Of a stretch of DNA of 64,000 nucleotides, positions 9,949-28,970 are shown piece after piece. The notes under the pieces were generated by a model. That model was given only the letters and a program-made list of their open reading frames with translations. It was not told the DNA's origin and made no database searches. The number at the start of each line of letters is the position of its first letter. Positions within the stretch are counted from its first letter, which is position 1. The position numbers and the translations under genes are program-made. The DNA comes from Gammaproteobacteria bacterium (lineage in GTDB: Bacteria > Pseudomonadota > Gammaproteobacteria > Eutrophobiales > Eutrophobiaceae): NCBI GenBank assembly GCA_965222155.1, contig CBDCTH010000001.1, positions 31,401 to 95,400 of the forward strand, in the 5' to 3' direction.

Positions 9949-10545
9949 TCAGCAGAACACCCGGGGCCGAAAGTCTGCCTGATTGATAATGCTGGCGCTG
10001 CTCCCGGTGGCTCGGATGACATACAAGCCCTGCCGCTCCGCATACACCTGCACAGAATGATCCACCTTCAGGTACGCCACTGCGCCCAGTATCTTCCGTC
10101 CTTTGAATCCCGACACCCAACCCGTGAATTTATCCAGCTTCTCCAGAAAATGCGTCACATCCCCGGCCCGTAACGTGGTCTTGACTTCCACGACGACCAC
10201 TTCTTCTCCATTCGCTGCCAGAATGTCATACTCGTAATGCTCGCCATTACGCCGACCGCTCACTCGGGGATACGTCGTCTGCACTTCTATCCCGCGCGCC
10301 TGCAACAGGGGAATCAGGTCCCCTTCTACCAGACTCTCCACCAGCTTGCCCCACTGGCTGGTAAACAACTCATCCAGTTTCTTCAAGCGCCGGTCGGTTT
10401 CCTTCATCTGCCGGTCGGTTTCCTTCATCCGCCGGTCGGTGTCCTTCATCTGTTCACGGACCTCCTCAGACTGCTTGCCGACGGCTCGCAGAATATTCCA
10501 GATTTCTTCGGGGGTGGCGGGGTCTTGATGCAGTTCGTTTTCCAT
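9949..10545 (-). CDS. coiled-coil PD-(D/E)XK nuclease-like protein, copy 3, three heptad units
   Basis: Near-identical to copies 1 and 2; MKDTDRR-MKETDRQ-MKETDRR. Confidence 0.8.
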   Translation of the reverse strand: MENELHQDPATPEEIWNILRAVGKQSEEVREQMKDTDRRMKETDRQMKETDRRLKKLDELFTSQWGKLVESLVEGDLIPLLQARGIEVQTTYPRVSGRRNGEHYEYDILAANGEEVVVVEVKTTLRAGDVTHFLEKLDKFTGWVSGFKGRKILGAVAYLKVDHSVQVYAERQGLYVIRATGSSASIINQADFRPRVFC

Positions 10546-10714
10546 GATGCCTTTCTCCTGTGCTGGTTTGACGTTACAGAGAATAATACAAGCGCCGGAA
10601 TATATCAAGTTCAATTTTCATGCTGTATTTCAAACTGAGACACTATCAGTTTCTCCATAATAAGGAATAGCATCCTAATCTCTGTCGATATATATTCTAA
10701 TCTTGAGACAAGCA

Positions 10715-11536
10715 CTATTTATGTGCATCGAGTAGGATCATGACTTCTCCTTTGCCGTTGTTCGCCAGGTCACCGGTATACATACGGACTTCAGGGCCGA
10801 AATTGCGGAAAAACCGGTAACGGCTTCCCATACGGGAAAGCTGTTTGAAAAACAGGCGCAGGTATTCCATCTTCAGCGTACCGCAGTTTGCCAAGGTAGC
10901 GCCGATCCGGTCAGGCCGCTTGCCCAGTATAATGGTCCCGCGTTTCATCCCGTAACCCGGGAGTTTGCCTGATTTACCCAGGATCAATATGGTGCCGGCC
11001 ACCATGCCGGCGCCGGAAAAGTTTCCTGCGTTGCCAGCGATCATGATCATCCCGCGCCGCATTTTATCACCGGTCCGATTTCCGGCATTGCCCCATACCG
11101 TGATCAGGCCGTCCTGCATTCCCTGCATGCTGGTTCGAGCCCCGGCCCCGATGTAATCGCCAGCATCGCCCTCGACGTCGATCCTGCCCCAGTGCATATC
11201 GCAGCCGAGCCAGTCGCCGCAACTGCCGTTGACCCTGATTGTGCCGCCTCTCATCCCGTGCCCGAGGTAACTGCCGCCATGGGCCTTGACGTTGAGGTGT
11301 CCCCGCGTCATGTCTGCGCCTATCCGGGTAACCAGTTCCGTAGTGCGGCGTAACTCAATATGCTCAGGGTTGTCTCCACTGATGGAAAACAGGTCTCCGG
11401 TTCTGGCCGGTGTTGAACCCAGGACCACTTCGATAGCGGCGATATTATCTGCGGCCGACAGTCTGTCCGGTGTCAGCGCAGATAAATCCAGCCGTTGGCG
11501 CGGCTTGTTCTTCAAGGTGAGTATCATGGGTTTCAT
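10715..11536 (-). CDS. fhcC: formyltransferase/hydrolase complex subunit C (FhcC/FwdC family)
   Basis: Gly-rich GxxMxxG beta-helix repeats; last gene of fhcBADC. Confidence 0.9.
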   Translation of the reverse strand: MKPMILTLKNKPRQRLDLSALTPDRLSAADNIAAIEVVLGSTPARTGDLFSISGDNPEHIELRRTTELVTRIGADMTRGHLNVKAHGGSYLGHGMRGGTIRVNGSCGDWLGCDMHWGRIDVEGDAGDYIGAGARTSMQGMQDGLITVWGNAGNRTGDKMRRGMIMIAGNAGNFSGAGMVAGTILILGKSGKLPGYGMKRGTIILGKRPDRIGATLANCGTLKMEYLRLFFKQLSRMGSRYRFFRNFGPEVRMYTGDLANNGKGEVMILLDAHK

Positions 11537-11551
11537 CTCAGGAACCTCTGA

Positions 11552-12460
11552 TCAAGTCGGTGTTTCTTTCAATATATCCCTGAGGTGGAAATGGTAAGGT
11601 CCCAGTTTTCCGCCATAGTTCCCTGCGCCGATCCGGTAGATGCCCTTGTCCGGTCCATTTTCGCAGACCGCCTCGATACCGGCGCGCATGGCTTCGCTGA
11701 TTGCGGCTTCATTCAAGCCGTCGATGACGATTTCCAGAACGGAACCGATCTCCTCCGTCAGCATGCTGTTTACCCGGCTTTTCAGGGTTGGGCAGAAGAC
11801 CTCATTTGTTGATGCCGGTAGAAAAGAGTATTTCGAGCCTACCTTGGAACCGGATCCGACAATCCCACCGGGAAACGTGGTGACTGCGCCGTCCACTCCG
11901 CGAATCGCCTTAACGGCTTTTTCACAGGCGCTCAGGCCGTGACGGGAAGTCTTTGCCATCACCAGGAAATTACCGCCGCCAATGGCAGGGACTACACCGG
12001 TGCTCTCTTCGCACAGGAATTCACCGTGCATGACCGGGATGCGCCAGTAGCGGATACCGTCCAGTATCTTTGATATCTGGTGACCGTCGCCGAAATATCT
12101 CAGGCTTTTACCCAGCGGCAACATGGTATCGCTATGGGTACCCGCAAAGCAGGCGCTGGTCGCGGTAGTCATTACGGATTGTCCGACGCGCCGGGTGAGT
12201 TGGTCGGCCAACTGCGATTTCGACATGGCAAACATGATGATCGCCACACCGGGCCTGCCGTCCGGGGTTTCTTCCGGCTTCAGTTCCCGTTCAATATCCG
12301 CCTCACAACCGCAGGCAATCACGGACGAGGCAAATCCGGTCAGGGAGTTGGCCGCGCGGTAAGCATACTTCATGGTCATGGCGGTAATGATCAGCCGGGT
12401 CGCCTTCATGGGAAATGCCTCGGCAAACGTATCGTCAATGCTTACGCCGTTTATTTTCAT
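11552..12460 (-). CDS. fhcD: formylmethanofuran:H4MPT formyltransferase FhcD
   Basis: MKINGVSIDDTFAEAF, TPDGRPG, GSKVGSKY, AGNYGGKLG; likely start 12460. Confidence 0.92.
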   Translation of the reverse strand: MKINGVSIDDTFAEAFPMKATRLIITAMTMKYAYRAANSLTGFASSVIACGCEADIERELKPEETPDGRPGVAIIMFAMSKSQLADQLTRRVGQSVMTTATSACFAGTHSDTMLPLGKSLRYFGDGHQISKILDGIRYWRIPVMHGEFLCEESTGVVPAIGGGNFLVMAKTSRHGLSACEKAVKAIRGVDGAVTTFPGGIVGSGSKVGSKYSFLPASTNEVFCPTLKSRVNSMLTEEIGSVLEIVIDGLNEAAISEAMRAGIEAVCENGPDKGIYRIGAGNYGGKLGPYHFHLRDILKETPT

Positions 12461-12469
12461 AATTAAAAT

Positions 12470-13805
12470 CACTGCTGTCCCAAGAAAATCGTGTTGATAT
12501 AATATAACTCATTCATTTCATTAGTAAATAAGCGATTTTTAGCAGACATCGATTAAAACCACCCCTCCCCCGCTGGCTAATGCTACCCTCCTGATTTTTA
12601 TCATTATCAGGAGGAGCCATCATGCCGTCCGGTCACTATATCTTTTCTCAGGTCATGGCCCATTTGCCCATGAAACCATTCCGCCGCTGTGTCCAACGTT
12701 ATCACGGCAACCGTTATGTCAAATCCTTTACCTGTCTCGACCAGTTCCTCTGTATGGCATTCGCCCAACTCACTTACCGCGAGAGCTTGCGTGATATCGA
12801 AGTCTGCCTGCGCGCACACCGGGACAAACTCTATCATATGGGGCTACGCGGCGGCATGTCACGCAACACCCTCGCCCATGCCAACCCGCAGCGCGACGGG
12901 CGCCTCTACGCCGACTTTGCCCACGCCCTGATTCGCCTGGCCCGACCGCTGTATGCCGACGAAGACCTGGGGCTGGAACTCGATAATACCGTCTATGCCC
13001 TCGACTCCTCCACCATCGACCTGTGCCTGTCCGTGTTCCCCTGGGCGCACTTCCGTCAAACCAAAGCGGCTATCAAACTGCATACCTTGCTGGACTTGCG
13101 CGGCACTATCCCCACCTTTATACATCTCTCCGAGGGCAAACTGCACGATGTCAATGTCCTCGACCTGCTGCTGCCCGAGCCCGGCGCCTGCTACGTCATG
13201 GACCGCGCGTAGCTCGATTTCCAACGTCTGTTTGCCCTCAACATCGCCGCCGCCTTCTTCGTTATCCGGGCCAAGTCCAATACCCGTTACCGCCGCCGTT
13301 ATTCCCGACCGGTCGATAAAGCCACCGGCCTGCTGTGTGACCAGACCATCGTCCTGACCGGTGTCCGCGCCGCCACCCACTACCCACAACCACTGCGACG
13401 CATCAAATACCGCGACCCACAGACCCATAAGACGTTCGATTTCCTCACCAACCACTTTGCCTTGCCCGCACACACCATCACCGAGTTGTATCGCTATCGC
13501 TGGCAGGTCGAGTTGTTCTTCAAATGGATTAAACAACACCTGCGCATCAAAGCCTTCTTCGGCACCTCGGAGAACGCTGTCAAAACCCAAATCTGGACCG
13601 CCGTCAGTGTGTATGTCCTGGTGGCGCTCATAAAAAAACGTCTCCAACTGACTACGGAACTCTACACAATATTACAGGTTTTAAGCCTGACCCTGTTTGA
13701 AAAAATACCATTATATCAATTACTTATACAATCCGATTACAAAACAGACCACCGTGATATACTTAACCAGTTGAATTTATTCGATTAATTCTTGGGACAC
13801 TAGTG
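12470..13805 (+). mobile_element. IS4-family insertion sequence
   Basis: IRs CACTGCTGTCCCAAGAA / TTCTTGGGACACTAGTG; 9-bp target duplication AATTAAAAT at 12461-12469 and 13806-13814. Confidence 0.92.
12622..13788 (+). pseudogene. IS4 transposase interrupted by in-frame TAG (13210-13212)
   Basis: ALDSSTI, MDRA*LDF (normally DR.Y), Y.YRWQVELFFKWIKQ (YREK), all in one frame. Confidence 0.88.
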
Positions 13806-13823
13806 AATTAAAATATTAAATAA

Positions 13824-14034
13824 ATCCGCAGATGACGCAGATTAACGCAGATGTATTCAGGTATTATTTGTGCCAATCTGCTGGTTATCATTCCCGCGTA
13901 ACCGGGAATCCGGTAAATAAACACTTCCTTGTCATAATGGGTTTTTTGTCTACTGTATGTCTGCATTCACGATGACAACCAGAAAGACATGAAACACTTA
14001 AAATAATCTGCGTTAATCTGCGTCATCTGCGGAT
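13824..14034. repeat. 29-bp perfect inverted repeat enclosing a REP-like hairpin; one arm encodes the fhcA C-terminus and stop
   Basis: ATCCGCAGATGACGCAGATTAACGCAGAT (13824-13852) and reverse complement (14006-14034). Confidence 0.85.
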
Positions 14035-15689
14035 AAATCCTGTTTGCAATCATGTACCAGCAGTGGATGTTGATTATATCCTTCCAGTTCATCCCGGCTG
14101 ATTTTGAAATTTTCCAGGTTCATGGTCATGTATCTGTCAAAATAGCGTTTCAGGGGTTTTTCTATGCCCCGGTCGTAATCCGGTTCGACCACGTGACTGC
14201 TGGTAGCCGGTATGGCGCAGACCTTGCCGTTCCTGACGCAGAGTTCGCCGCGTTTGAATACGTATTCCGGTCTGCTGAACATGGTCTCTGCGTTGTCATC
14301 AGGCTTATAGACGGTGATATCCGCCGTTGCCCCTATCCCCAGGTGGCCGAGGTTTCTCAGTCCCAGGCTCCTTGCCGGCGCAGCCCGGGTGAGAATAGCA
14401 ATTTCGTATAATGAATATTCCCGGTCGATTGAAGACAGGATGCTTGCGCTTGCGGCATCCTTGTTGATAGTGGCTAACATGTCGTTGCGAAATCCCTTGT
14501 CCATGAGCAGCCTTATCAAATGCGGATAGGAAGTAAATGGCGCGCCGTTCGGGTGATCGGTGGTCAGGAAAACACGCCAGGGGTCATTAATGAGTAAAAA
14601 TATTTCCAGGCCGATACACCACTGCAAGGCATTGACGAAATTTCTGTCCCGGTAGCGGAAAGGCACCACGCCACAGCCGGCATCGCATTCTATGTCCATG
14701 CAGACCCATTTTTTCGGATGGGCATGAATGTGACCCTTATGCTGCATCATGGTATCGGCGGATGCGGTAATCGTTTGGCCGAACATGATCTGGCCGACGT
14801 CAATGGATACGTTTCCGTTCCGGTTGACAGCCTCTGCTACCTGTGCTGCCGCGGACGAGAATTTCCTGTCCCCCTCCTGTCCGTAACTGTAGAATTGTAC
14901 ATGGGCCAGGTGTAACGGCTTGCCCTCCGCCGCGGCAATGGTGTCAAGTGTCGTCTGGTAATTGCCCGGTACCCCCAGGTTGCAGCCATGCACGTGCAGG
15001 GGATGAGGAACGCCGAGCTCGTCCAGTGCATCAAGCAGCGCGGCCATAATGTTACGGGGCGTTATTCCGTAACCGATGTTTTTTTCATCCAGGTCCAGCT
15101 TTCTCTGGTTGAACTTGAACGCGCTGATCCCGCCAGGGTTCACTACCTTGACGCCCATTGCCCGTGCGGCGTGGATTGTCCAGGCCACATAATCATTTAT
15201 CACGGACTGTTCTTTTTTGCCTTGCAGCAGGCGCAGCAGGAAATCGTCGTTGCCGAGCAGTACATAAGCGCCCGTGTCCAGCATGGGGGTATCCGCCATT
15301 TCCAGGTGTGACGGGCGGGCATTCACAGGCATCATCGCCGGTTCGAAACAGGTGGTATAGCCCATTTCGGCATAACGGTAGCCGGTGACAAAACTGGTAG
15401 GGGCAATAGTGCCGGAACCTGAGTGCGTCAAGGCGCTTGAGGCTACCGCACTGGTGCTATGGTCCTCCGCCAGTAATAACCTGGCGATATTGACCTTGCC
15501 CCCGCCGATGTGGGTATGGATATCGATACCGCCTGCCATGACGATGCGGCCGTTCAGGTCTATCAACTGGTGAATTTTTTGATCCGGCGCCGGTTTGACC
15601 AGCTTGCCATCCTGTACGTACAAGTCCATGATTTTGCCGTCTATCCCGTTGCATGGGTCATAGACCTTGCCGCCTTCGAGCTTGATCAT
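14013..15689 (-). CDS. fhcA: formyltransferase/hydrolase subunit A (amidohydrolase)
   Basis: GGIDIHTH, HPLHVH, HVQF, TTDHPNG. Confidence 0.93.
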   Translation of the reverse strand: MIKLEGGKVYDPCNGIDGKIMDLYVQDGKLVKPAPDQKIHQLIDLNGRIVMAGGIDIHTHIGGGKVNIARLLLAEDHSTSAVASSALTHSGSGTIAPTSFVTGYRYAEMGYTTCFEPAMMPVNARPSHLEMADTPMLDTGAYVLLGNDDFLLRLLQGKKEQSVINDYVAWTIHAARAMGVKVVNPGGISAFKFNQRKLDLDEKNIGYGITPRNIMAALLDALDELGVPHPLHVHGCNLGVPGNYQTTLDTIAAAEGKPLHLAHVQFYSYGQEGDRKFSSAAAQVAEAVNRNGNVSIDVGQIMFGQTITASADTMMQHKGHIHAHPKKWVCMDIECDAGCGVVPFRYRDRNFVNALQWCIGLEIFLLINDPWRVFLTTDHPNGAPFTSYPHLIRLLMDKGFRNDMLATINKDAASASILSSIDREYSLYEIAILTRAAPARSLGLRNLGHLGIGATADITVYKPDDNAETMFSRPEYVFKRGELCVRNGKVCAIPATSSHVVEPDYDRGIEKPLKRYFDRYMTMNLENFKISRDELEGYNQHPLLVHDCKQDLSADDAD

Positions 15690-15710
15690 ACTGTCTCCCT
15701 GTTAATTTTC

Positions 15711-15804
15711 GTCACCCTTCCGGGCTTGATCCGGAATCCAGTCTGAACTTGCGTCGCTGAAAGAGTCGCATCTTTTCCTGGATTCCGGCATTCGCCGGAA
15801 TGAC
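15711..15804. repeat. REP-like doublet (GGATTCCGG...CCGGAATGAC family)
   Basis: Two inverted hairpin units; same family at about 13885-13912, 41645-41781 and 42565-42730. Confidence 0.8.
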
Positions 15805-15828
15805 TGCTCAGCCTCATACATGGCTTGT

Positions 15829-17136
15829 TCATGTCAGATTGCCCTCTATACAAGAGATAATTTCCCTGATGACCCAGGCAGCGCTGCGAGAACCGCTATC
15901 CCTCACTTGTTTCAGGGGCATGTTGATGATGTTGTCCGTCCTGAACAGACTGCCGGTGTGGTCAATGCCGGGGATTCCCACTGGAATATAAACGTCGGCG
16001 TCTGTCGCTCCGGTTCGGTATGGGGATAAAATAATCGTGGGGACGTCTAACGCCGGAGGAGTGTCGTCCGTAAAGGTCGAGATCCATAACAAACTGTCCA
16101 CGGCAGATAGGTCCGTGTCGATGCCGGACGGGCATCCTGAACGGAAATTGACATCGGTCGGGAATCCGGTCTGCCAGGTCGCCACACTCTGGAACGATGC
16201 AGCGCCGTTACTGCCGCTGAGTGACAATCCGGCGAAGCGCTGCCTGGTGTTCAGGTCGCGCGCCAGGTCCAGTATTGAACTGATGATCAGGTCGGCGTGA
16301 TCCTGCGGCAGTGCTGCCGGGCACCATACCAGCACGCCATAGTCCGCATCCCGGATTATCCCGGCAACCTGGTTCAGTTTGCGGTTTTTTGCCGCCGGTA
16401 TAGTCTGGTAGTCAGACAGTTGTTCATCTGCCAGTTTGGTGCGCAACAACGCCAGGTTGTCGGCTATTTCATCACCGTGTCCGGAAACAACCACGGGAGC
16501 GTGGTCATTGAATTCATTCAACTCCTGCGTGCCGGGTCGGCCCAGGTAGGCCAGTTTCCTGTTTTTTGATGTGCGCCATCCCGGGCGCGCCCCCTTCGGG
16601 CGCCCTTCGGGCGTCCAAATCTGTTCCGGACAGATTTGTCCGACGAACAGGGAATAGGGGGTGTTGATGAAACGTTCAATGAACCGGGGATAATCCCCGG
16701 TAACGTTGTTACCGATAAAGATGATGGTATCCGCCCTGTTTTTCACCTCTGCCAGGGTGGTCATCATCCCGCCCCGGGTCTGTAGCGCTTTCAGGTTATG
16801 GCCGGCATGGTGTTTGTGTGCCTGCAGGAGAGCGGCATCGACCTTTTCGGCCAGCCGCAGGGCCGCGCGTATGCCGTCTACGTCGGTGCCGAGGCCGGCA
16901 ATCAACGGTTTGCCGGACTGTTGCAGAATCCTGGATGCGGCTGTTACAGCCTGGTCGATGGTAGTCGGAACGCCTTTCAGTCTTGCTTGCGCAGGAGGCA
17001 GGGGCGCAGCAAAACCCTGGCCGGCAAGCCGGCAGTCATTGGCGGATACGTCAAGCTGCTGCTGTTTGTTACGGACCGTCAGGTCATCACACAAAAGGCT
17101 GCAAAACGGGCAGGTTACATTCGCTATTGACGCCAT
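15829..17136 (-). CDS. fhcB: formyltransferase/hydrolase subunit B, lacking the Mo/W-ligating Cys, with a 24-aa repeat-derived insertion
   Basis: CPFCSLLCDD N-terminus, TLAEVKNRAD, TWQTGFP; no CHGP motif. Confidence 0.88.
   Translation of the reverse strand: MASIANVTCPFCSLLCDDLTVRNKQQQLDVSANDCRLAGQGFAAPLPPAQARLKGVPTTIDQAVTAASRILQQSGKPLIAGLGTDVDGIRAALRLAEKVDAALLQAHKHHAGHNLKALQTRGGMMTTLAEVKNRADTIIFIGNNVTGDYPRFIERFINTPYSLFVGQICPEQIWTPEGRPKGARPGWRTSKNRKLAYLGRPGTQELNEFNDHAPVVVSGHGDEIADNLALLRTKLADEQLSDYQTIPAAKNRKLNQVAGIIRDADYGVLVWCPAALPQDHADLIISSILDLARDLNTRQRFAGLSLSGSNGAASFQSVATWQTGFPTDVNFRSGCPSGIDTDLSAVDSLLWISTFTDDTPPALDVPTIILSPYRTGATDADVYIPVGIPGIDHTGSLFRTDNIINMPLKQVRDSGSRSAAWVIREIISCIEGNLT
16569..16640. 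repeat. 72-bp palindromic element inserted in frame in fhcB
   Basis: Homologous to intergenic copies at 18619-18690 and 30921-30991. Confidence 0.85.
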
Positions 17137-17151
17137 CTGGTGTTAATAAAT

Positions 17152-18525
17152 TCAGTCCAGCAGGGCCAGCATTTCGTCGATTGAGGTATATTTCTCCCTG
17201 GGTTTCCCTGCTGTCTGGCCGCGTGTGATTTCGGCGGCGTCGATTTTTTTCCAATCGGAGAAACTGATATGACGGACCCCGCGCCGGTCGAGAATTTCAC
17301 AACAACCTGCGGCGCCGCTTTTGCTCTCGCCGGTGTCCAGCTTGTTGATATCTTCCAGCATCATACCCACCGTCTCCACACTGTCCGCCTTGTTGGTGCC
17401 GATGATGCCGGTGGGACCGCGCTTAATCCAGCCGGCCGTGTATAACCCGTGGTCCACGGCGCCGTCCTTGATGATCCTGCCTTTATCGTTGGAAAAAACA
17501 CCGCGGGATTCATCAAACGGCACTCCGAACATGGGTATGCCGTGGTAGCCTATACTGCGAAAGACGATCCCGGCGTCAATAGTGAGCGTTTCTCCGCTGC
17601 CCCTCGCAGACTGCCGGAATGGTTCCCCTGACAAGGTGTTTTTTTCTATCAGCAGCCGTTCTACCCTGCCGTCGCCAAGCATTTCCCTGGGGCTCTTCAG
17701 GAAGGTAAAAATGCAGTGCTTGTCCGTGGTCAGTTCCCGGTCGGCAAAACCGCAGAACAGGTCATAGATTTTTTTACTGCCGGCATTGGTCTTGTCGGCC
17801 AGCTCTGTTTCGCTTTCCGGGTTTAACACCAGTTCGTTTGCATCAATCACCGGGTCGCAAGCAGCCAGCGCCCCGAACTCCTTCAACTCCTTGGAGGTGA
17901 ACTTGGCCTGTGCAGGACCGCGCCGGCCGATAACGTAGATGTTTTTGATTTTACTGTCAGCCAGTGCATCCAGGGCATGCTCGGCAATATCCGTGTGTTT
18001 TAATTCGTCAACGGTTTTGGCCAGGATCCGGCTTACATCGGCGGCAACATTCCCCTGGCCGATAATGACCGCCGTTTCGTGGGACAGGTCAAATTTCCGC
18101 TCGCGATAATCAGGATGGCCGTTATACCAGCCGACAAATTCCGTTGCCGTGTAGCTGCCCTGTAGGTCTTCTCCCGGGATGCCGAGACGGCGGTCGGTTT
18201 CGGCGCCGCAGGTCAGGATCAGCGCGTGATGGGTTGCCCGTAATTCGGCAATGCTGATGTCCTTGCCGGTGGTCACGTTTCCTATGTAATTGAACTGTTC
18301 CGCTTCAGCGATCCTGGCGTAGACGTTGATAACCTGTTTCAGTTTCGGGTGATCCGGCGCAACACCGCTCCTTACCAGGCCGTAGGGCACGGGCAGCCGT
18401 TCGAACATGTTAATCCTGACTTCGAGGTCGGCTTTGATGAGTGCATCAATGGCATAGAAGCCACTTGGACCGCTGCCGACTACGGCAACTATCAAGGGGT
18501 TGTTCCGGGTTCCTAATCGACTCAT
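17152..18525 (-). CDS. ferredoxin--NADP+ reductase (adrenodoxin reductase/FprA type)
   Basis: VVGSGPSG, GLVRSGVAPDH, IGQGNVA.D, GWIKRGPTGIIGTN. Confidence 0.9.
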   Translation of the reverse strand: MSRLGTRNNPLIVAVVGSGPSGFYAIDALIKADLEVRINMFERLPVPYGLVRSGVAPDHPKLKQVINVYARIAEAEQFNYIGNVTTGKDISIAELRATHHALILTCGAETDRRLGIPGEDLQGSYTATEFVGWYNGHPDYRERKFDLSHETAVIIGQGNVAADVSRILAKTVDELKHTDIAEHALDALADSKIKNIYVIGRRGPAQAKFTSKELKEFGALAACDPVIDANELVLNPESETELADKTNAGSKKIYDLFCGFADRELTTDKHCIFTFLKSPREMLGDGRVERLLIEKNTLSGEPFRQSARGSGETLTIDAGIVFRSIGYHGIPMFGVPFDESRGVFSNDKGRIIKDGAVDHGLYTAGWIKRGPTGIIGTNKADSVETVGMMLEDINKLDTGESKSGAAGCCEILDRRGVRHISFSDWKKIDAAEITRGQTAGKPREKYTSIDEMLALLD

Positions 18526-18543
18526 GATTCACGTTATTGTATT

Positions 18544-18779
18544 TAACCCTGATATTGCGTCAGTGGATGTGCCCTCACTTGTCTTTTTTGCACTGGCGGG
18601 TACGTGCTTCCTCAACCAGACAAATCTGCCAGGAGCAGATTTGGACGTCCGCAGGGCGCCCGCAGGGGGCGCCCCAAGGATGGGGCGCATCAACTACGGC
18701 TATGCTTTCGGTCGCAGGCACCCGCCAGCACAAAAAATCCAGCGTGATCTTCACATCCACTGACACAATATCAGGGTTA
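18544..18779. repeat. nested palindromic repeat cluster
   Basis: Outer 28-bp IR (18544-18571 / 18752-18779, 1 mismatch) encloses a CTGGCGGGT...ACCCGCCAG element, which encloses the 72-bp element. Confidence 0.8.
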
Positions 18780-18876
18780 GAAAGGAAAACGAATCCCGAC
18801 GACCCGCCGCCGCGCCGTACGGGTCAGTTCGGGGATGAAACAGCTAAACAGATTACAGGCTAGCCATATATGCGGG

Positions 18877-19182
18877 CTAGAAACCCAGAGCGGCTTTCTT
18901 TTCGTCCGCGCCGGGTAACGGATCCATGGTGTCGGCACAGACCGGGAGTACCTTGGATTTTTCCGCGTTGATGTCTATCCATTCGAATTTGTCTTCGGGC
19001 AGGTCATCTTCCTCATAGATGGCCTGGACCGGGCATTCCGGTAGGCATGCACTACAATCGATACAGACCTCCGGGTCTATATACAGCATCTCGTCGTCAT
19101 AGTGAAAACACTCCACCGGGCATACCGTGACGCAATCGGTATAACGACAGTCTTTACAGTTATCAGTTACGATGGTTGTCAT
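18877..19182 (-). CDS. 7Fe-type ferredoxin (FdxA-like)
   Basis: CKDCRYTDCVTVCP and CIDCSACLPECP. Confidence 0.9.
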   Translation of the reverse strand: MTTIVTDNCKDCRYTDCVTVCPVECFHYDDEMLYIDPEVCIDCSACLPECPVQAIYEEDDLPEDKFEWIDINAEKSKVLPVCADTMDPLPGADEKKAALGF

Positions 19183-19236
19183 GATATTCTCCTATATAAG
19201 CTGTTCTGAAATAAGTCAACCCCGGCAGTCACGGTT

Positions 19237-20046
19237 CTATCCAGCATATAATAATATTTCTCCCCGGTTCAACTCAACACTGTCGCCACAGTAACGTTTG
19301 AATAAACCCTGCAGGTATTCTTCACCTATCGCAAAGACATCCATCAGGTGGAGCAGGTAAAGCATAATGTAACCTGGCCGGTAAGTACATGAATAGCTGA
19401 ATGTGGGCAGCAAATGTGCGCTCTTCAGACTGACGATGGTGCCCCGCTTCATGCCCGCCCCGGTCCGGATGCCGAGTTCTCCGAGTACAAAAATGCTACC
19501 GGAGAGCATATTGACCCCGGTGAAGTCACCGCTGTTGCCGGCAACGGCGATCAGCCCGTTGCGCATTGCATTGCCGGTCTCGTTTCGCACGTTGCCGTGA
19601 ATGATGATTTCCCCACCTTCCATGCCCATGGTTGCGCCCCGATAGGCACTCCCCACCATGTGGCCTGCATTGCCGTGAATCTCAATTCTGCCTCCGGACA
19701 TCTCCGGCCCGACCCAGTCGGCGGCATTGCCGATAACCCTGATTTCGCCCCCGCTCATGGCGGCCCCAAGGTGTTCGCCGACGTCACCTTCCACCTGGAT
19801 GGTCCCCCGTGACATACCGGCGCCGATAAGTTTTACCCGCCCCAGGTGGTCCCCCTGCACGTTGATGACCCCGTCGGACTGGCCTGTCACACTGAAGAAG
19901 TCACCGATATAACGGGCTTCACTGCCATGCATGACTTCCAGTTTTTCCACGCTTGCCGGTGTCTGGCCGGCGAACCGGGCAGGGGTGATGTTATCCGCCT
20001 CCAGGGGTACGTCCGGCGTTGCAATCTGTTTCAGTGATATAGGCAT
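19237..20046 (-). CDS. fwdC: formylmethanofuran dehydrogenase subunit C
   Basis: GxxMxxG repeats, GAGMKRGT; paralog of fhcC. Confidence 0.88.
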   Translation of the reverse strand: MPISLKQIATPDVPLEADNITPARFAGQTPASVEKLEVMHGSEARYIGDFFSVTGQSDGVINVQGDHLGRVKLIGAGMSRGTIQVEGDVGEHLGAAMSGGEIRVIGNAADWVGPEMSGGRIEIHGNAGHMVGSAYRGATMGMEGGEIIIHGNVRNETGNAMRNGLIAVAGNSGDFTGVNMLSGSIFVLGELGIRTGAGMKRGTIVSLKSAHLLPTFSYSCTYRPGYIMLYLLHLMDVFAIGEEYLQGLFKRYCGDSVELNRGEILLYAG

Positions 20047-20061
20047 ATCAACATCCTGTCA

Positions 20062-20946
20062 CTACAAGTTCAGTTCGTGCAGGTTAATCTTGTATTGTCC
20101 GAGGTTGCCCCCATAGTTGCCGGCGGTAATTTGCCTGATCCCCGGTTTTGCGGCGGCCTGGATGCCTGCAGCCATGGCTTGCTTCACTGCTTGTTCCGTC
20201 AGGCCGTCAATCACGATTTCAAGGGCGCAGTTGACGTCTGCCGGGAGGCTGCTGTCGGTTACCGCTTTCAGCGTGGGACAGTAGGCGTCATTGGTGGACG
20301 CGGGCAGGGTCTTGTAACGTGAACCCACTTTGCTGCCACTGCGCACGACGCCATTGGGAAAGGGCAGGATAATATCTTTTATCGCTCCCATGGCCCGGGT
20401 GGCTGCGCCGGCCGCAGCCAGGGTTTTTTTCTCATCCGTTCCCAGTATGATGATATTACCTCCACCTACTGCCTGCTGTACGGCAAACGATTCTTCCACG
20501 GTAAACTCACCATCCATGACCGGGATACGCCAGAAACGCCGCTCTGCCAGCTTCTTGCTGCCCTGGAAACCATCGCCGAAATAACGCAGTAGTGAACCTA
20601 CCTGGACTATCTCATCACCATCCAGGCCGTTGAAACAAGCCGTAGTCGGGCAGGTCATCACGCATTGGCCGATACGTTCAAGCAGGCGCTTGCCCACCGA
20701 TGCTTTGTCCATGGCGAATAACAGGATGCTGACGCCTGGCCGACGGTCCGGGGTCTGATCGGATGACAGAAAGCCCTCAATGCCGGCCTCACATTTACAG
20801 CCGATCACCGAGGTGGCAAACCCGGTCATCGATTGCGCCGCGGCCTGGCACCACTGTTTGGTCGCCGCGGTGACGATCACCCGCGCCCCCCACATTTTGA
20901 AGGCCTCGGCAAAAGTTCCGACAATTTCAGTTGACCTGATTTTCAT
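20062..20946 (-). CDS. ftr: formylmethanofuran:H4MPT formyltransferase, second copy
   Basis: TFAEAF, TPDRRPG, GSKVGSRY, AGNYGGNLG. Confidence 0.92.
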   Translation of the reverse strand: MKIRSTEIVGTFAEAFKMWGARVIVTAATKQWCQAAAQSMTGFATSVIGCKCEAGIEGFLSSDQTPDRRPGVSILLFAMDKASVGKRLLERIGQCVMTCPTTACFNGLDGDEIVQVGSLLRYFGDGFQGSKKLAERRFWRIPVMDGEFTVEESFAVQQAVGGGNIIILGTDEKKTLAAAGAATRAMGAIKDIILPFPNGVVRSGSKVGSRYKTLPASTNDAYCPTLKAVTDSSLPADVNCALEIVIDGLTEQAVKQAMAAGIQAAAKPGIRQITAGNYGGNLGQYKINLHELNL

Positions 20947-22586
20947 TCTGATACCGTTGCGATTACTTCATGGTCATGCAGGTAACTGTCATTGACTGCA
21001 TAATTGGGGAATTCGATAGAATAATAACTCTCAAAAAACGGCCTTACTTCTGCGACTATGGATTCATCGTATTCAGGTTCCGTATGCAGGAATTTCCCGT
21101 AGAAATCCCGGCGGAACTCGTGGTTTTCGATAATGACGTTACCTGATTTGATCACGTAACGGGGCGCGTTGAACATGGCCTCCTTATCGTCCATTTCATC
21201 GTAGATGGTGATGTCCGCATCGGCGCCCGGCCCCAGGTGGCCTTTGTTTTTCAGGTTCAGAGCCCGGGCCGGTCCGGCGCGGGTAATGATGGCTATCTCA
21301 TTGAGTGTATATTCACGCTCCAGTTCATTCAATAAGGTGCCGTTAACGGCTTTCTGGTTGACGCGCTTGATTTCCTCCTTGCGGAATTCCTTGTCCATCA
21401 GCAGGCGGATCAGCTTTGGGTAACTCATAAAGGAACCACCGTTCGGATGATCAGTGGACAGAACGATACGCCAGGGGTCTTTTGACAGCAGGAACAATTC
21501 CAGGCCGATGGCCCATTGCAGGGCATGAACATAGACATGTTCCTGGTAGCTGAACGGAACGATGCCACAACCGCTTTCGCACTCCGTATCGGCATTTACC
21601 CATTTCGCTTTTTTGAAGCCCCTGAGCATATAGGCCAGTGGCGCGTCCGCAGTCATGATCGTGGCTTTACCGAACATGACTTGGCCGACGTCGCAGGTGA
21701 TATTGGGGTGGTCGTTAACGTACTCGGCGATCTGCCGGGACGCGGATTTAGGGTTCTTGCCGGGCTCTCCCGCGTAGCTGTGGAACTGTATATGGGCCAG
21801 GTGCACGCGCCTGTCGCCGGCCGTTCTCATGGTCTCCAGGGTAGTCTCGAAGTTGCCGCTATGGCCCAGGTTGTTGCAGTGAATATGGGGCGGATGCGGT
21901 AAACCCAATTCATTCACTGTTTCAATAAATGCATCGATAACCTGTCGGGGTGAGACTTCTATGACTTCACTTTTTTCATCGATATTCTTGACGTTGGAGT
22001 TCTTTTTACCCTTCCAGGGCTCATCTCCGCCCGGGTTCACCAGTTTGGCCGTGTAGGCCTTGGTTGCGTTGATCCACCAGGCTACTGCGTGACGGAATTC
22101 CTGTTTACGCCCGGCCTTGAGCAATTGCTGCAAAAAAATATTATTGCCCAGCAGCACGTAAAATCCCTTATCTATAACCGGCGTATCGTGGAATTCTTCA
22201 ATAGTATGGCGGGCGCCGATAGGAGTGACGGCCGCTTCCATGGCGGTCGTGTAGCCCAGGGTGGCATAACGGTATCCCGTTGCAAAGGTGGAAGGAACGG
22301 TGCCGCCGGCGCCGGACCGGGTGTGTTCCGTAGCGGGGTGGGGGTCACGGCGGTGGTCTTCGGGCTGCAGTTTCCTGGCCAGGTTTACCTTGGGGCCGGC
22401 TATGTGGCAGTGGATATCCACGCCGCCGGGCATTACCACCATGCCGCTGACGTCAATTCTCAAGGGTTTGGAGGTAGGAGTTTCGACTATGCGTCCCTGC
22501 TCCAGATAAAGGTCCTTTATTTCCCCGTCAATGCCGTTGGCTGGGTCATGAACCTTGCCCCCTGTAAGTTGAATGCACTCCGTCAT
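20943..22586 (-). CDS. fwdA: formylmethanofuran dehydrogenase subunit A
   Basis: GGVDIHCH, HIHCNNLG, HIQF, STDHPNGG. Confidence 0.92.
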   Translation of the reverse strand: MTECIQLTGGKVHDPANGIDGEIKDLYLEQGRIVETPTSKPLRIDVSGMVVMPGGVDIHCHIAGPKVNLARKLQPEDHRRDPHPATEHTRSGAGGTVPSTFATGYRYATLGYTTAMEAAVTPIGARHTIEEFHDTPVIDKGFYVLLGNNIFLQQLLKAGRKQEFRHAVAWWINATKAYTAKLVNPGGDEPWKGKKNSNVKNIDEKSEVIEVSPRQVIDAFIETVNELGLPHPPHIHCNNLGHSGNFETTLETMRTAGDRRVHLAHIQFHSYAGEPGKNPKSASRQIAEYVNDHPNITCDVGQVMFGKATIMTADAPLAYMLRGFKKAKWVNADTECESGCGIVPFSYQEHVYVHALQWAIGLELFLLSKDPWRIVLSTDHPNGGSFMSYPKLIRLLMDKEFRKEEIKRVNQKAVNGTLLNELEREYTLNEIAIITRAGPARALNLKNKGHLGPGADADITIYDEMDDKEAMFNAPRYVIKSGNVIIENHEFRRDFYGKFLHTEPEYDESIVAEVRPFFESYYSIEFPNYAVNDSYLHDHEVIATVSE

Positions 22587-22615
22587 ATTGTCTGCATAGG
22601 CGCCGCGGCTTTGTT

Positions 22616-22810
22616 AGCCCGTATTTCGCACCAGGTGATGCGCCCTCGCTTGTCTTTGTGCCGCCAGCGGGCACGTGTTCATTGCGCCCATCCCCCTGCT
22701 CAACTCCATACAGGGGCAGGCTCTGGGCGCAACCCTGCGGGCGGCCTGTGCCGTGCAAATTGTCTGTCCTGACGATTTGTCATCGCATCACCTGGTGCGA
22801 AATACGGGCT
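22616..22810. repeat. nested palindromic repeat cluster overlapping the fwdB 3' end
   Basis: 27-bp perfect IR (22616-22642 / 22784-22810) enclosing members of the 72-bp-type and 28-bp hairpin families. Confidence 0.82.
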
Positions 22811-24147
22811 GCGCCGGTTGTTCCTCTGGCCTGGCCTTTTGCCAGCACCAGTTCACGCACGCGTTTTTTGATTGCCGTCAGAATTTCCTCATCGGTCGGG
22901 AAAGGTGAGTCAAAGGCTTTACGCAAGGTGATGGGCACGTCGTCCATGCGGTAGACGGTGCCGGCCGTGTTAATGCCGTAGGTGGATGTCCGGAACGCCA
23001 CGTGCGCCAGCTTGCTGGTTATGGTGGTTTTGGTGTCCAGACATACAAAAGGAATTTTTGCCAGGTGGTCAATGGCCGCCTGGGGAAAATTGGATGCGGG
23101 GTCGGTGGCTATGATCAAGGCAGCATCGGCATCCCGCTTGGACAGCAAATCAACGGTGGTGAACTCGCCCGGGTTGAAACGGGGGAAACCACGGCTGAAA
23201 TTGACGCCGAAGGGATAACCGGTCTGCCAGGACATGACGTTATCGGCGCCGGTTACATTGCCATGGCCCCGCACAGGCTTGGCAACAAAATGGGTATATT
23301 CGTTCAGGTCCGTGGCCAGGGCCAGCAGGGCGCCTGAATTAAAGTGCCGGCCGCGGGTCATGGTCAGGCCCATGCCGAAAAACAACACGCCGTAGCGGCA
23401 CGCTTTCATCCTGTCGACCAGTTCCTCCAGGGTTTCCAGGCTGACCCCGGTAATTTCTTCGATATCGGGGTCTATCCTGCGGCTTTTGACCAATGCGCGT
23501 AACGCCCATAATACTTCAAAGTCCTTGCCAGGCTTCACCTGGATAAACTGGTTGGCTGCCGGTGTGCTGGGTGTCCTGCGTACGTCAACCAGGACTACAT
23601 GCCGATCTTTTTTGCCGCGGGGCGTGAACATTCCTTTGGCTGTGACCGCATAGCGGCCAAAGTGGCGCGGGTGGGATTCGGCCGGATTGCCGCCCCAGTA
23701 AATGACCAGGTCGGCGCGGTTTTTCACCTCGCCCAGAGTCATGGTGCTTTCACCCACTCCCTGGAGGGCAATGCCCGATGGCCCGTGGCAGACAGAAGTC
23801 GTAGTATCAATGTTGCCCTTGATGATATCGGCAATGGCTACGGCTTGCTTTTGCGCCTCACAGGTGGTGTCGCTGAGACCGTAAGTGATAGGGAACCTGG
23901 CGTTGACCAGGGTCCTGGCGGCTTCTTCCACGGCTTCATCAATGGAGACAGGCTGATTATCAATCAGCGCGGCAGGTGCGCCTTCTTCTATGTAGTGTTC
24001 CGCAAACCAGGCGCGGCCGAGTACGCAGGCGTTTTTCGCCTTGATAATGCGCTTTTTGTCCAGGTCCACCGTCAGTATCATGTCGTCACAGACACAACCA
24101 CAGAAAGTACAGGTGGCATTTTCTACAACTTTGATGTTTTCACTCAT
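22780..24147 (-). CDS. fwdB: formylmethanofuran dehydrogenase subunit B (Mo/W-bisPGD catalytic type)
   Basis: CTFCGCVCDD...C FeS motif, TSVCHGPS with catalytic Cys, TLGEVKNRAD, RGHGNV. Confidence 0.9.
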   Translation of the reverse strand: MSENIKVVENATCTFCGCVCDDMILTVDLDKKRIIKAKNACVLGRAWFAEHYIEEGAPAALIDNQPVSIDEAVEEAARTLVNARFPITYGLSDTTCEAQKQAVAIADIIKGNIDTTTSVCHGPSGIALQGVGESTMTLGEVKNRADLVIYWGGNPAESHPRHFGRYAVTAKGMFTPRGKKDRHVVLVDVRRTPSTPAANQFIQVKPGKDFEVLWALRALVKSRRIDPDIEEITGVSLETLEELVDRMKACRYGVLFFGMGLTMTRGRHFNSGALLALATDLNEYTHFVAKPVRGHGNVTGADNVMSWQTGYPFGVNFSRGFPRFNPGEFTTVDLLSKRDADAALIIATDPASNFPQAAIDHLAKIPFVCLDTKTTITSKLAHVAFRTSTYGINTAGTVYRMDDVPITLRKAFDSPFPTDEEILTAIKKRVRELVLAKGQARGTTGAARISHQVMR

Positions 24148-24179
24148 GATTTCTCCCCACGGAATCGCGGCAAGCTATT

Positions 24180-24524
24180 TTAACTGATTTTTTCCACCTG
24201 GACAGAAATATGTTTTGACAGGGGCATGCCGCTGCCGGCGGTATCGCTCTCCATCAGGCGGCTGGAAGTAGGGCCATAGGCGATGAAGATCATGCCCTGA
24301 GGCAGGTCGGTGGCTTTTTTTGGAACACAGGTAACAACGACCTCGCCGATATGATTTTTCAGACGCAGCTTATCGCCGCTGTCGAAACCAAGACGGGCCA
24401 TATCATCCGCATTTATTTCAACGGTGGATGTGACTTCCCGATACTCGTCGCCGAGTTTTCCCTTGTTAAGGGAAGTCCCTTGCTTACTGGATCGTCCCGG
24501 GATCAACAACATGGTTACAGGCAT
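24180..24524 (-). CDS. fwdD: formylmethanofuran dehydrogenase subunit D (molybdopterin dinucleotide-binding)
   Basis: LIPGRS..QG, INADD..RLG, G.IFIAYGP, T.GSGMP.SK. Confidence 0.85.
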   Translation of the reverse strand: MPVTMLLIPGRSSKQGTSLNKGKLGDEYREVTSTVEINADDMARLGFDSGDKLRLKNHIGEVVVTCVPKKATDLPQGMIFIAYGPTSSRLMESDTAGSGMPLSKHISVQVEKIS

Positions 24525-24674: not shown

Positions 24675-24750
24675 CTTAGAATTTATGGTTGTCCCGTATT
24701 AGAATATCCCCGCTTAGAATTTATGGGTGTCCCAAATTAGAATATCCCCG
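24675..24750. repeat. 2 x 38-bp imperfect direct repeat in the fwdD/mptG divergent region
   Basis: CTTAGAATTTATGGKTGTCCC..ATTAGAATATCCCCG at 24675 and 24713. Confidence 0.8.
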
Positions 24751-25727
24751 TGCTTTTGAAGAAGATGAAACAACAAGACATCGCTGTTGCCGAAACGGTG
24801 AGGGTTGCCGCGGCAGCCCGCCTGCACCTGGGTTTCCTGGATTTGAATAGTGGGTTGGATAGGCGTTACGGCAGTATCGGGCTCGGGATAACGGGTTTCT
24901 CCACGGTGGTGAATGTCTGCCATAGCAACTGGCTGGACATCAACGGAGCGGATGATGAATATATCGCCCGGATTACGGAAACCGTCCTGGATTATTTCCG
25001 CATAAATTCCGGGGTCAGGGTTGAAGTTGAAGAGCATATTCCCCGTCACCAGGGTCTGGGTTCCGGTACCCAGATGGCATTGGCATTGGGTACTGCCATT
25101 ACTGGCCTGTACGGTATCGATACCACAGTTGAAGAACTTGCGATCGCAACAGGAAGAGGTGCGCGTTCCGGAGTAGGGTTGGGGGTGTTCAAGGAGGGTG
25201 GTTTCATTCTCGATAGCGGCAAAGCCGGGGGGCACAGGTTGCCGACGCTGATATTCCGCCACGACTTTCCTGAAGAATGGCAGTTTGTCCTGGTGATGGA
25301 TGAACGGGCCAAGGGGATAAACGGGATGGAAGAGATAGAAGCGTTCAATACATTGCCGAACAAGTCCTCCGAAGCAAGCGCGGAGATTTGCCAACAGGTA
25401 TTGATGCAGATGCTACCGAGTATTATAGAGAAGGATTGCAGTCAGTTCGGTGCATCTGTCAGCAGGATACAGGCGCGCATGGGCGAATATTTCAGCGCTG
25501 CCCAGGGAGGCCTGTTTGCCAGCGATAATGTCAAACAAACGCTTGAATTCCTTTTGGAAAACAAGGCAACCGGCGTCGGCCAGACATCCTGGGGGCCGAC
25601 CGGGTTTGCCGTATTCCCGGACAAGAAATCGGCAATGCAGGTCATGGACAATTTTGCCGGGCGGGATCCTAAGGTAACACTCCGGGTTGCCGGAGCGCGA
25701 AACAGTGGAGCCCGAAGCAGCAGGTGA
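24750..25727 (+). CDS. mptG: beta-ribofuranosylaminobenzene 5'-phosphate synthase (GHMP fold)
   Basis: ARLHLGFLDL, PRHQGLGSGTQ, GRGARSG, GQTSWGPTG; start may be ATG 24765. Confidence 0.9.
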   Translation: MLLKKMKQQDIAVAETVRVAAAARLHLGFLDLNSGLDRRYGSIGLGITGFSTVVNVCHSNWLDINGADDEYIARITETVLDYFRINSGVRVEVEEHIPRHQGLGSGTQMALALGTAITGLYGIDTTVEELAIATGRGARSGVGLGVFKEGGFILDSGKAGGHRLPTLIFRHDFPEEWQFVLVMDERAKGINGMEEIEAFNTLPNKSSEASAEICQQVLMQMLPSIIEKDCSQFGASVSRIQARMGEYFSAAQGGLFASDNVKQTLEFLLENKATGVGQTSWGPTGFAVFPDKKSAMQVMDNFAGRDPKVTLRVAGARNSGARSSR

Positions 25728-25732
25728 TCTTC

Positions 25733-25977
25733 GGGGTCGGACCAACGTAATCTATTGATATTGTTATATAAAATGTTGCTTATAGGTCTGATTTAAGGCT
25801 TAGAACACTTTTTTGACGGTGAAAAACATCACTTTAAGACAGAGTAACAGGCTACGACGGTAAGCGATATTTCTTATAATGCCCATTTTCATGACAAAAA
25901 TTGCATTTTAAGGTTAAAACAAGCCATATATAGAAGTATAAACTAATAAAATCAAATAGTTATCCAGGTCCGACCCC
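25733..25977. mobile_element. AT-rich MITE-like element with IHF-consensus sites near both ends
   Basis: IR GGGGTCGGACC / GGTCCGACCCC; TATCAATAGATTA (minus) and AATCAAATAGTTA (plus). Confidence 0.6.
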
Positions 25978-26016
25978 ACAGCCCGACAGCCTCAGCCCCC
26001 CCAGCCGGGAGCAACT

Positions 26017-27448: not shown

Positions 27449-27478
27449 GCCGGACAGTAATACCCGGGATAACCCGGC

Positions 27479-28943: not shown

Positions 28944-28970
28944 CAACCATTTGTAACCACTTGTCGTACA

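Follow-up and report, generated by a model that had tools for sequence, protein, structure and literature searches.

The window analysed here is a 64,000-nt stretch of contig CBDCTH010000001.1 from a gammaproteobacterial genome assembly (GCA_965222155.1), and it contains, at 10715-24524, a cluster of eleven genes in which a set resembling formyl-methanofuran (formyl-MFR) dehydrogenase (fwdD-fwdB-fwdA-ftr-fwdC) is followed by a ferredoxin gene (fdx), a ferredoxin reductase gene (fpr) and a second set of the Fhc type (fhcB-A-D-C). Homology assignments are based on family profiles and PDB-chain matches. A first-pass annotation, made from the sequence alone, had described a single co-oriented run of eleven genes, and family scans recovered all eleven on the minus strand across this span, as follows:

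24180-24524, minus strand: fwdD, 114 aa, 'domain IV' molybdopterin-dinucleotide-binding cap (PF01568, E 1.9e-10)
22780-24147, minus strand: fwdB, 455 aa, candidate Mo/W-bis-pterin catalytic subunit (TIGR03129, 509 bits; cut-off 328)
20943-22586, minus strand: fwdA, 547 aa, amidohydrolase subunit (TIGR03121, 702 bits, over the cut-off)
20062-20946, minus strand: ftr, 294 aa, formyl-MFR:tetrahydromethanopterin (H4MPT) formyltransferase (PF01913 and PF02741; NF002554, 432 bits)
19237-20046, minus strand: fwdC, 269 aa, GXGXG beta-helix (TIGR03122, 251 bits, over the cut-off; PF01493)
18877-19182, minus strand: fdx, 101 aa, FdxA-type ferredoxin (NF045490, 112 bits; cut-off of 135 not reached)
17152-18525, minus strand: fpr, 457 aa, FprA/adrenodoxin-reductase-type NADPH:ferredoxin reductase
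15829-17136, minus strand: fhcB, 435 aa, scaffold-type B subunit (TIGR03129, 224 bits, under the cut-off)
14013-15689, minus strand: fhcA, 558 aa, formyl-MFR hydrolase subunit (TIGR03121, 752 bits)
11552-12460, minus strand: fhcD, formyltransferase of the Fhc set (NF002554, 441 bits)
10715-11536, minus strand: fhcC, 273 aa (TIGR03122, 232 bits)

The small FwdD protein scores 78.5 bits against NF042908, whose archaeal-specific cut-off of 175 is not reached, and its gene stands upstream of fwdB in related loci as well. The start of ftr overlaps the stop of fwdA by 4 nt, an arrangement by which ftr is predicted to be translationally coupled to fwdA. For fhcD, alignment with the start in a relative places the true start at the ATG at 12460, not at the GTG at 12472. 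Between the two sets, paralogue identities inside the window are 27% for B, 46% for A, 50% for the formyltransferase and 34% for C.

The clearest difference between the two sets lies in the B subunit. FwdB matches the archaeal FwdB chains 9sfi_Q, 8rja_B and 5t5i_B at E values of 2.6e-116 to 1.4e-111, but FhcB of Methylorubrum extorquens (6s6y_B) only at 1.6e-12, and it carries the motifs CxxCxxxC...C, SVCHGPS (with the Cys-His pair) and PVRGH (with the Arg). Its Cys120, His121 and Arg293 align with Cys118, His119 and Arg288 of M. wolfeii FwdB, which are named as catalytic residues in the accessible part of Hemmann et al. 2019 (PMC6926001). Across 92/92 related loci (80 from a locus scan and 12 from relatives, some genomes occurring in both sets), the four cysteines of the iron-sulphur (FeS) motif are preserved together with the Cys-His-Arg triad, and a stop codon that could stand for selenocysteine occurs at the ligand position in none of the 92. 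Chain 9sfi_Q has an X in this Cys column, which we take to be selenocysteine. FhcB carries His, Ala and Ser where FwdB has the catalytic Cys, His and Arg, and no FwdD accompanies the Fhc set; FhcB nevertheless retains its four N-terminal FeS cysteines, unlike FhcB of M. extorquens. The earlier observations that the first B subunit keeps both the FeS motif and the SVCHGP Cys and is accompanied by FwdD, and that the second lacks this Cys, are thus confirmed, with the correction that FhcB has the four FeS cysteines too.

The best PDB match of FwdA is archaeal (8rja_A, 475 bits, versus 366 for M. extorquens FhcA), and that of FhcA is M. extorquens 6s6y_A (457 bits, versus 412 for the best archaeal chain), while both Ftr and FhcD find bacterial FhcD (6s6y_D) as their best match. 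In FwdA, conservation reaches 97% or more over 149 rows at the HxH motif (H59 and H61), at K181 and at other His and Asp positions, and these residues presumably serve as the binuclear metal ligands of an amidohydrolase. Over the 13 loci whose alignments span 80% or more of each of the eleven genes, median identity is highest for FwdB (80%), followed by Fdx (79%), and lowest for FhcB (36%), as would be expected of a B subunit with a catalytic role in the first set and a scaffolding role in the second.

The position of FwdB among its homologues was examined in a FastTree phylogeny of 129 rows with SH-like supports, in which archaeal and bacterial rows were not told apart except for those labelled as Planctomycetes. 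Only 22 of the 129 rows keep the Cys-His-Arg triad. The nearest representatives at the 50%-identity level are only 53% identical to FwdB, and several of them are FwdD-FwdB fusions; their named kin belong to Pirellulales/Planctomycetes, and all of those checked carry the triad. The window protein is sister to five Planctomycete-type proteins (support 99), to which it is up to 63% identical. The phylogenetic comparison proposed in the first-pass annotation was carried out as a tree for FwdB, and the A and formyltransferase sets were compared through their PDB matches. The fusion proteins, of 570-606 aa, are P0121, P0122, P0126, P0128, P0144, P0145 and P0320. In P0122, the ligand position is occupied by Gly.

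Planctomycete-type metagenome loci have the order fwdD-B-A-C, and ftr, fdx and fpr occur in 0/35 loci of at least 9 kb, which marks the integration of ftr and the presence of the fdx-fpr pair as peculiar to the gammaproteobacterial clusters. In loci of at least 12 kb, genes for a MobA-like protein (15/27), MoeA (12/27) and an aldehyde:ferredoxin oxidoreductase (14/27) recur, so that the neighbourhood looks like a tungsten/molybdenum-enzyme island. This link of the sister clade to molybdenum-cofactor (Moco) insertion genes lends indirect support to the view that the FwdB lineage is one of metallopterin enzymes. In one such locus (L124, 6424-17523), and in others among L113-L192, the aldehyde:ferredoxin oxidoreductase, fwdD-B-A-C, the MobA-like gene and two moeA genes lie together; one MoeA of these loci is fused to a PBP-like domain.

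The two genes between the sets encode a plausible electron chain. The nine cysteines of Fdx (C9, C12, C17, C21, C25, C40, C43, C46 and C50) are invariant in 50/50 aligned sequences, and their spacing is, as we take it, the 7Fe pattern of one [3Fe-4S] and one [4Fe-4S] cluster. Elsewhere the genome encodes another FdxA, 50% identical to the operon protein, which suggests that the operon Fdx is a dedicated paralogue. Fpr matches the NADPH-specific FprA of Mycobacterium tuberculosis (1lqt) at E 2.4e-104 over residues 10-454 with about 50% identity, and bovine adrenodoxin reductase (1cjc) at E 4e-101 over its full length. The genome holds one close copy of fpr. A motif search of the window's frames for CxxCxxCxxxC returned two proteins only, Fdx and a DsrO-like protein (41836-42543) that is part of a separate molybdopterin-oxidoreductase unit 18 kb from the cluster, and no FwdF/G polyferredoxin or other FeS gene besides fdx was found near fwd in this search. 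The earlier statement that FwdF/G/H-like genes are missing from the window accordingly stands, FmdE was not found in the genome, and Fdx would be the only electron partner encoded beside fwd. A prediction of a FwdB-Fdx complex gave a score of 0.29 against a mark of 0.32, run without controls, and counts neither for nor against binding.

The distribution of this arrangement was followed in two samples. Among 61 genomes of relatives, including that of the window, FwdB-type proteins (E<=1e-40) occur in 36, namely in 32/36 genomes of the same family and 3/24 from elsewhere in the class; when 400 further genomes were drawn evenly from the phylum, only one, of the same family, gave a FwdB match at E<=1e-90. 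Of the 61 genomes, 32 have both FwdB and Fpr, 4 have only FwdB, 2 have only Fpr and 23 have neither of them. The locus scan, restricted to one genome per species, yielded 80 loci with FwdB 75-96% identical to that of the window, most of them labelled 'Gammaproteobacteria bacterium' and others Chromatiales, Thiotrichaceae, Legionellales, 'uncultured Enterobacteriaceae', Proteobacteria or Gemmatimonadota; the records include 'Chromatiales bacterium USCg_Taylor' (a metagenome-assembled genome of an upland-soil-cluster gamma methanotroph), 'Candidatus Oxydemutatoraceae' and 'candidatus Porisulfidus'. Of these loci, 23 end too early to judge what follows fwdC. In the 57 informative ones, fdx and fpr lie directly after fwdC in 54, fdx alone in one and neither in two, so that the conservation of the pair with the cluster, on which the first-pass annotation had made its proposal depend, is borne out. 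Among the 54 loci, fhcB comes next in 33; in 17 it does not, although the sequence runs on for 2 kb or more. In a Gemmatimonadales-labelled locus, fpr lies directly upstream of fwdD.

All five complete genomes with Fwd-Fdx-Fpr that were tested for it (5/5), one of them in the window's genus, have a single A subunit, which implies that they have no Fhc. One genus accordingly holds three configurations (Fwd with Fhc, Fwd only and Fhc only), in which fdx-fpr is the constant part, and this diversity offers a natural comparative test. The locus of one Fhc-only genome (G005; L193, 2549-10102) has about 7.5 kb of other DNA between fdx and fpr, with both genes intact.

Genes around the cluster and elsewhere in the genome point to C1 oxidation. 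Divergent from the cluster lies a group of cofactor and pathway genes, recognised by NCBIfam and Pfam matches:

24750-33174, plus strand: H4MPT/methanofuran island with genes for RFAP synthase, mch, a CitG-like protein, fae, a HisA/F-like protein (minus strand), an MfnF-like protein, pabB and an MfnE-like protein

Elsewhere, the genome encodes an MtdB-type protein and a member of the pyrroloquinoline quinone (PQQ) alcohol/methanol-dehydrogenase family that scores above its cut-off. A search of the genome for pmoA gave no match, but neither did its control, so that this result does not speak for absence of the gene. The Mo/W cofactor genes that the first-pass annotation had suggested looking for are present, in that mobA lies in the same region as moaA and modA is encoded too, which indicates a capacity for a Mo- or W-bis-pyranopterin guanine dinucleotide cofactor; PF12849 matches fit a tungstate or a phosphate binder alike and do not separate Mo from W. 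A NAD-type formate dehydrogenase alpha subunit of 913 aa, over the TIGR01591 cut-off, could take the formate released by Fhc, and its presence means that the classical route from Fhc to formate dehydrogenase is encoded as well. A dihydromethanopterin reductase of the AfpA/DmrB type was not found in the genome (best TIGR02699 match 20.8 bits), and there is one DHFR-family gene, as in relatives in which FwdB is missing at E<=1e-40.

Considered together, these observations suggest that fwdD-B-A-ftr-C encodes an Ftr-containing, Mo/W-pterin-dependent formyl-MFR dehydrogenase whose electrons pass through Fdx and Fpr to NADP+, a reading that we hold with slightly better than even confidence. In the proposed scheme, Ftr would transfer the formyl group from formyl-H4MPT onto methanofuran, FwdA would hydrolyse formyl-MFR, and FwdB/D would oxidise the resulting formate equivalent to CO2 at the metallopterin; electrons would then run from the [4Fe-4S] cluster of FwdB to the dedicated 7Fe ferredoxin, the FprA-type flavoprotein and finally NADP+. 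The route would operate in parallel to that of Fhc and the NAD-linked formate dehydrogenase. Cofactor binding, the composition of the complex, and the path and direction of electron flow are what we infer from sequence in this scheme. The CO2/formyl-MFR couple lies at about -530 mV and NADP+ at -320 mV, and from these potentials oxidation would be strongly favourable and the reverse would not. The two exits envisaged in the first-pass annotation, with formyl oxidation to CO2 via ferredoxin to NADP+, retain the support of the Fwd hallmarks, the fdx-fpr synteny, the cofactor genes and the formate dehydrogenase.

Several observations weigh against this reading, and most of them concern the proposed wiring. 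Enzymes of the FprA/adrenodoxin-reductase family usually run from NADPH to ferredoxin, and such systems supply P450s and similar acceptors with electrons from NADPH. Two genomes of the window's genus (G005 and G010, 98% and 97% complete) have no fwdDBA-ftr-C but an intact fdx-fpr-fhcBADC; the sequence upstream of fdx, including the junction, is common to both, indicating that the loss of fwd predates their split. Between these two genomes, where dS is about 0.36, the ratio of nonsynonymous to synonymous substitution rates (dN/dS) amounts to 0.15 in fpr and 0.09 in fdx, values like those of Fwd-bearing pairs; the retention of the pair under purifying selection implies that Fdx-Fpr has a use in the absence of Fwd. 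Conversely, three genomes with Fwd have no close Fpr: G026 and the genome of locus L109 have none at E<=1e-30, and that of locus L081 has only a partial homologue, 40% identical and located elsewhere. The Gemmatimonadales-labelled locus has no open reading frame (ORF) with a ferredoxin motif. The Moco and oxidoreductase neighbours of the Planctomycete-type clusters occur in 0/68 gammaproteobacterial loci of at least 12 kb. A hint of expression favours the reading: contigs of one RNA-library run labelled as a sponge metagenome, 90-96% alike, cover parts of fwdB, fwdA, ftr and fdx and the start of fhcB, bridging the fwdB/fwdA and fwdA/ftr junctions and leaving those of fwdC-fdx-fpr unbridged, but they come from a related strain and are no proof of transcription; promoter-like sites (15, versus 11.5±3.4 expected) and terminator-like sites (18, versus 17±4.8) are no better than chance. 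Since genomes without Fwd keep the pair and three genomes with Fwd have no close Fpr, Fdx-Fpr is probably not exclusive to Fwd, which speaks against an exclusive chain from Fwd through Fdx to Fpr.

The most probable alternative is that Fwd is a true dehydrogenase with another acceptor and that Fdx-Fpr runs from NADPH to ferredoxin for a pathway-wide need, such as a missing dihydromethanopterin reductase step, a radical-SAM step or the upkeep of FeS clusters. The persistence of the pair under purifying selection in two Fwd-less genomes, its retention where Fhc is absent, its status as the cluster's constant part, its location beside the cofactor-biosynthesis island, and the genome's single DHFR-family gene and want of an AfpA/DmrB-type reductase are all in keeping with it. 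However, fdx-fpr is set between the genes for catalytic subunits and not among the biosynthetic ones, and it stays with fwd in the 17 loci where fwd and fhc are apart; moreover, G026 and the genome of L109 have the pathway without any Fpr, and Fwd needs a ferredoxin-like partner, of which no other is encoded nearby. To our knowledge, no dedicated Fdx-Fpr pair exists in other H4MPT-using bacteria, which likewise counts against such a need. We therefore consider this alternative unlikely, though well worth keeping in mind.

A broader suggestion, that the pair is either a shared module of both B-type complexes, with Fhc redox-active too, or the missing dihydromethanopterin-reducing system itself, appears doubtful. 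Its first half taken alone, in which Fdx-Fpr serves both complexes and the Fhc of this lineage is redox-linked and not a pure hydrolase scaffold, is a shade more doubtful still. In 91 rows combining FwdB and FhcB, conservation of the four N-terminal cysteines reaches 95% or more, even though FhcB is otherwise only 34-69% identical, and the FhcB of every relative examined retains its FeS cysteines; the distance from the end of fpr to fhcB is 15 nt in the window and 15-20 nt when relatives are included; and Fdx-Fpr is kept with Fhc alone in G005 and G010. Nonetheless, the first three FeS cysteines are kept in 123/129 B-type representatives, whatever their catalytic triad, so that their retention is the common state among bacterial B subunits, and FhcB has neither the Cys, His and Arg of the triad nor a FwdD beside it. 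The available portion of Hemmann et al. 2019 (PMC6926001) gives no redox step for the Fhc reaction.

Two further alternatives are very improbable. Operation in the archaeal direction, fixing CO2 to formyl-MFR for assimilation, could appeal to the reversibility of the family and to its archaeal homologues, which are CO2 reducers according to the part of PMC11656701 available, but NADPH acting through a 7Fe ferredoxin would be about 200 mV too positive, the cluster has no electron-bifurcating or hydrogenase module, and formaldehyde oxidation is suggested both by fae and mch nearby and by the PQQ alcohol dehydrogenase encoded in the genome. Equally hard to credit is a second hydrolytic complex of the Fhc type with relic redox residues. 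Loss of the centre has happened repeatedly among bacterial B subunits, as the small share of tree rows with the triad attests, but here the triad and FeS cysteines are invariant, no protein of the cluster is better conserved than FwdB, FwdD is retained and Moco genes neighbour fwd in the sister clade.

Within the window's own genome, the cluster has been disturbed by mobile and repetitive DNA, the main features of which are:

12461-13806 (left end about 12461/12473), plus strand: IS4-family insertion sequence (IS) element between fhcA and fhcD, with its transposase frame in pieces
22615-22779, no strand assigned: multi-copy repeats resembling repetitive extragenic palindromic (REP) sequences, in the 193-nt fwdB-fwdA gap, with 191 short blastn hits to the own genome
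18564-18762, no strand assigned: REP-like multi-copy repeats in the 351-nt fdx-fpr gap, with 112 short blastn hits to the own genome

The transposase ORF of the IS4 element (12622-13212, 196 aa) corresponds to positions 4-185 of the 332 in profile NF033592, and terminal inverted repeats lie at 12446-12486 and 13789-13829. One copy elsewhere in the genome is 100% identical (1334 bp, G000:C12:2746528-2747862) and four others are 74-75% identical; in relatives, fhcA adjoins fhcD with no IS between. The insertion is a recent one. A joint from 12460 to 13806 that skips the element was found in one DNA run, but its shorter side covers 22 letters and is too weak for a claim of polymorphism. DNA runs with word shares of about 0.24-0.28 (X5-X19) did not enter the comparison. 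Because the element ends within about a dozen bases of the start codon of fhcD, fhcD-fhcC may be uncoupled from fhcB-fhcA in this genome, and with the Fhc genes split in this way the two exits may not both be fully expressed here. REP-like palindromes follow the element at 13822-14034. The fhcB-fhcA gap measures 139 nt, and the long gaps are all filled by short repeats present in 100-190 genome copies. At the fwdB-fwdA repeat, contig depth is very high in this bin, and a contig of a related RNA run has a gap of 41 nt instead; in the fdx-fpr gap, DNA runs show variant joints that skip parts of it, and in a relative the spacing is only 17 nt.

Outside the cluster and its cofactor island, the window contains a Uma2-family putative endonuclease gene (29-790, plus strand), an IS21-family element (1456-3775) with an IstA-like transposase of 513 aa and an IstB helper ATPase of 272 aa, and three paralogous ORFs of 207-228 aa with a C-terminal Hjc domain, the archaeal Holliday-junction resolvase domain (5370-5993, 7304-7990 and 9949-10614, all on the minus strand). 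One of these ORFs lies directly downstream of fhcC, and an AAA/STAND-like ATPase gene (8475-9620) is located between two of them. Beyond the island, a ribonucleotide reductase alpha gene (34760-38839, minus strand, 1359 aa) has NCBIfam matches split by about 375 residues (about 470-845), which suggests an intein or another insertion. The molybdopterin oxidoreductase unit (40696-45500, minus strand) comprises three genes, for a 915-aa PhsA/Psr-like catalytic subunit, the DsrO-like four-cluster FeS protein and an NrfD-like membrane subunit, and an AbiEi-type antitoxin/regulator gene is found at 50828-51976 on the plus strand. A hemL-like ORF (54770-55468, plus strand) covers the C-terminal half of its family model only, and an ABC sugar permease ORF (59397-59891, minus strand) only the C-terminal part of its model; together with the many IS and REP elements, these truncated ORFs suggest gene erosion.

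In textbook accounts, bacterial C1 oxidation ends in formate via Fhc, and we know of no biochemical demonstration in bacteria of a direct route from the formyl group to CO2. What is described here appears to be a bacterial Fwd that includes Ftr, is paired with a module of ferredoxin and FprA-type reductase and is widespread in one uncultured lineage, the redox-competent fwdD/B set being the rule in this family of uncultured Gammaproteobacteria. If the dehydrogenase reading is correct, formyl groups would be oxidised directly to CO2 and NADPH gained without free formate, by a compact formyl-MFR dehydrogenase whose electron chain is simple and soluble, which would be of interest for C1 physiology and for the enzymology of CO2 conversion. 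No published description of gammaproteobacterial fwdD/B with fdx-fpr was found, although supplements might list such genes. Chistoserdova (2016) reported a fwdD homologue as kept in Archaea, Synergistetes, Firmicutes and NC10 and not in Planctomycetes or Proteobacteria; Wells et al. 2023 (PMC10100899), in the portion available, ascribed bacterial FwdB-family members to transfer from Archaea and assigned them no function; and Hemmann et al. 2019, again as far as the accessible text goes, knew no bacterial methylofuran enzyme other than Fhc and listed the features that FhcB has lost.

The first set can be compared with several known systems. With archaeal FwdABCDFG/Fmd (PDB 5t5i, 8rja, 9sfi, 9sw6 and 7bkb), it shares full-length homologues of FwdB, FwdD, FwdA and FwdC, as well as the FeS motif and the Cys-His-Arg triad; in contrast, it has no FwdF/G polyferredoxin or FmdE, carries ftr inside the operon, is associated with a 7Fe ferredoxin and an NADPH reductase, and belongs to a bacterial host whose genes point to C1 oxidation. 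With M. extorquens FhcABCD (PDB 6s6y), the cluster shares the order B-A-formyltransferase-C, and both formyltransferases are closest to FhcD. The window's second set matches it in gene order, in the A subunit and in a B subunit that has neither metal ligand nor FwdD cap, whereas the first set keeps the redox centre and the cap. M. extorquens FhcB is described, in the part of PMC6926001 available, as having no cap, FeS domain or catalytic residues, and the window's FhcB differs from it in still having the FeS cysteines. The Planctomycete (Pirellulales-labelled) clusters offer the nearest FwdB and the same triad, but they have no ftr, fdx or fpr, some of them have fused FwdD and FwdB, and their neighbours are Moco and aldehyde:ferredoxin oxidoreductase genes. 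The M. tuberculosis FprA/7Fe ferredoxin and adrenodoxin reductase systems (1lqt, 1cjc) resemble the electron module in the full-length homology of Fpr and in a partner that is probably of the 7Fe FdxA type; the difference is that the flow proposed here is reversed and that the genes are embedded in a C1 operon. In function, the closest precedent is an F420-coupled Fmd, that of the ethane-oxidising Ca. Ethanoperedens thermophilum, for which a thermodynamic pull has been proposed in the accessible parts of the two reports (PMC11493965, PMC11656701). Like the system suggested here, it is oxidative and uses an acceptor of higher potential than ferredoxin; unlike it, the enzyme is archaeal and reaches F420 via a bound reductase, whereas the gammaproteobacterial complex is proposed to reach NADP+ via a soluble Fdx and an FprA-type flavoprotein.

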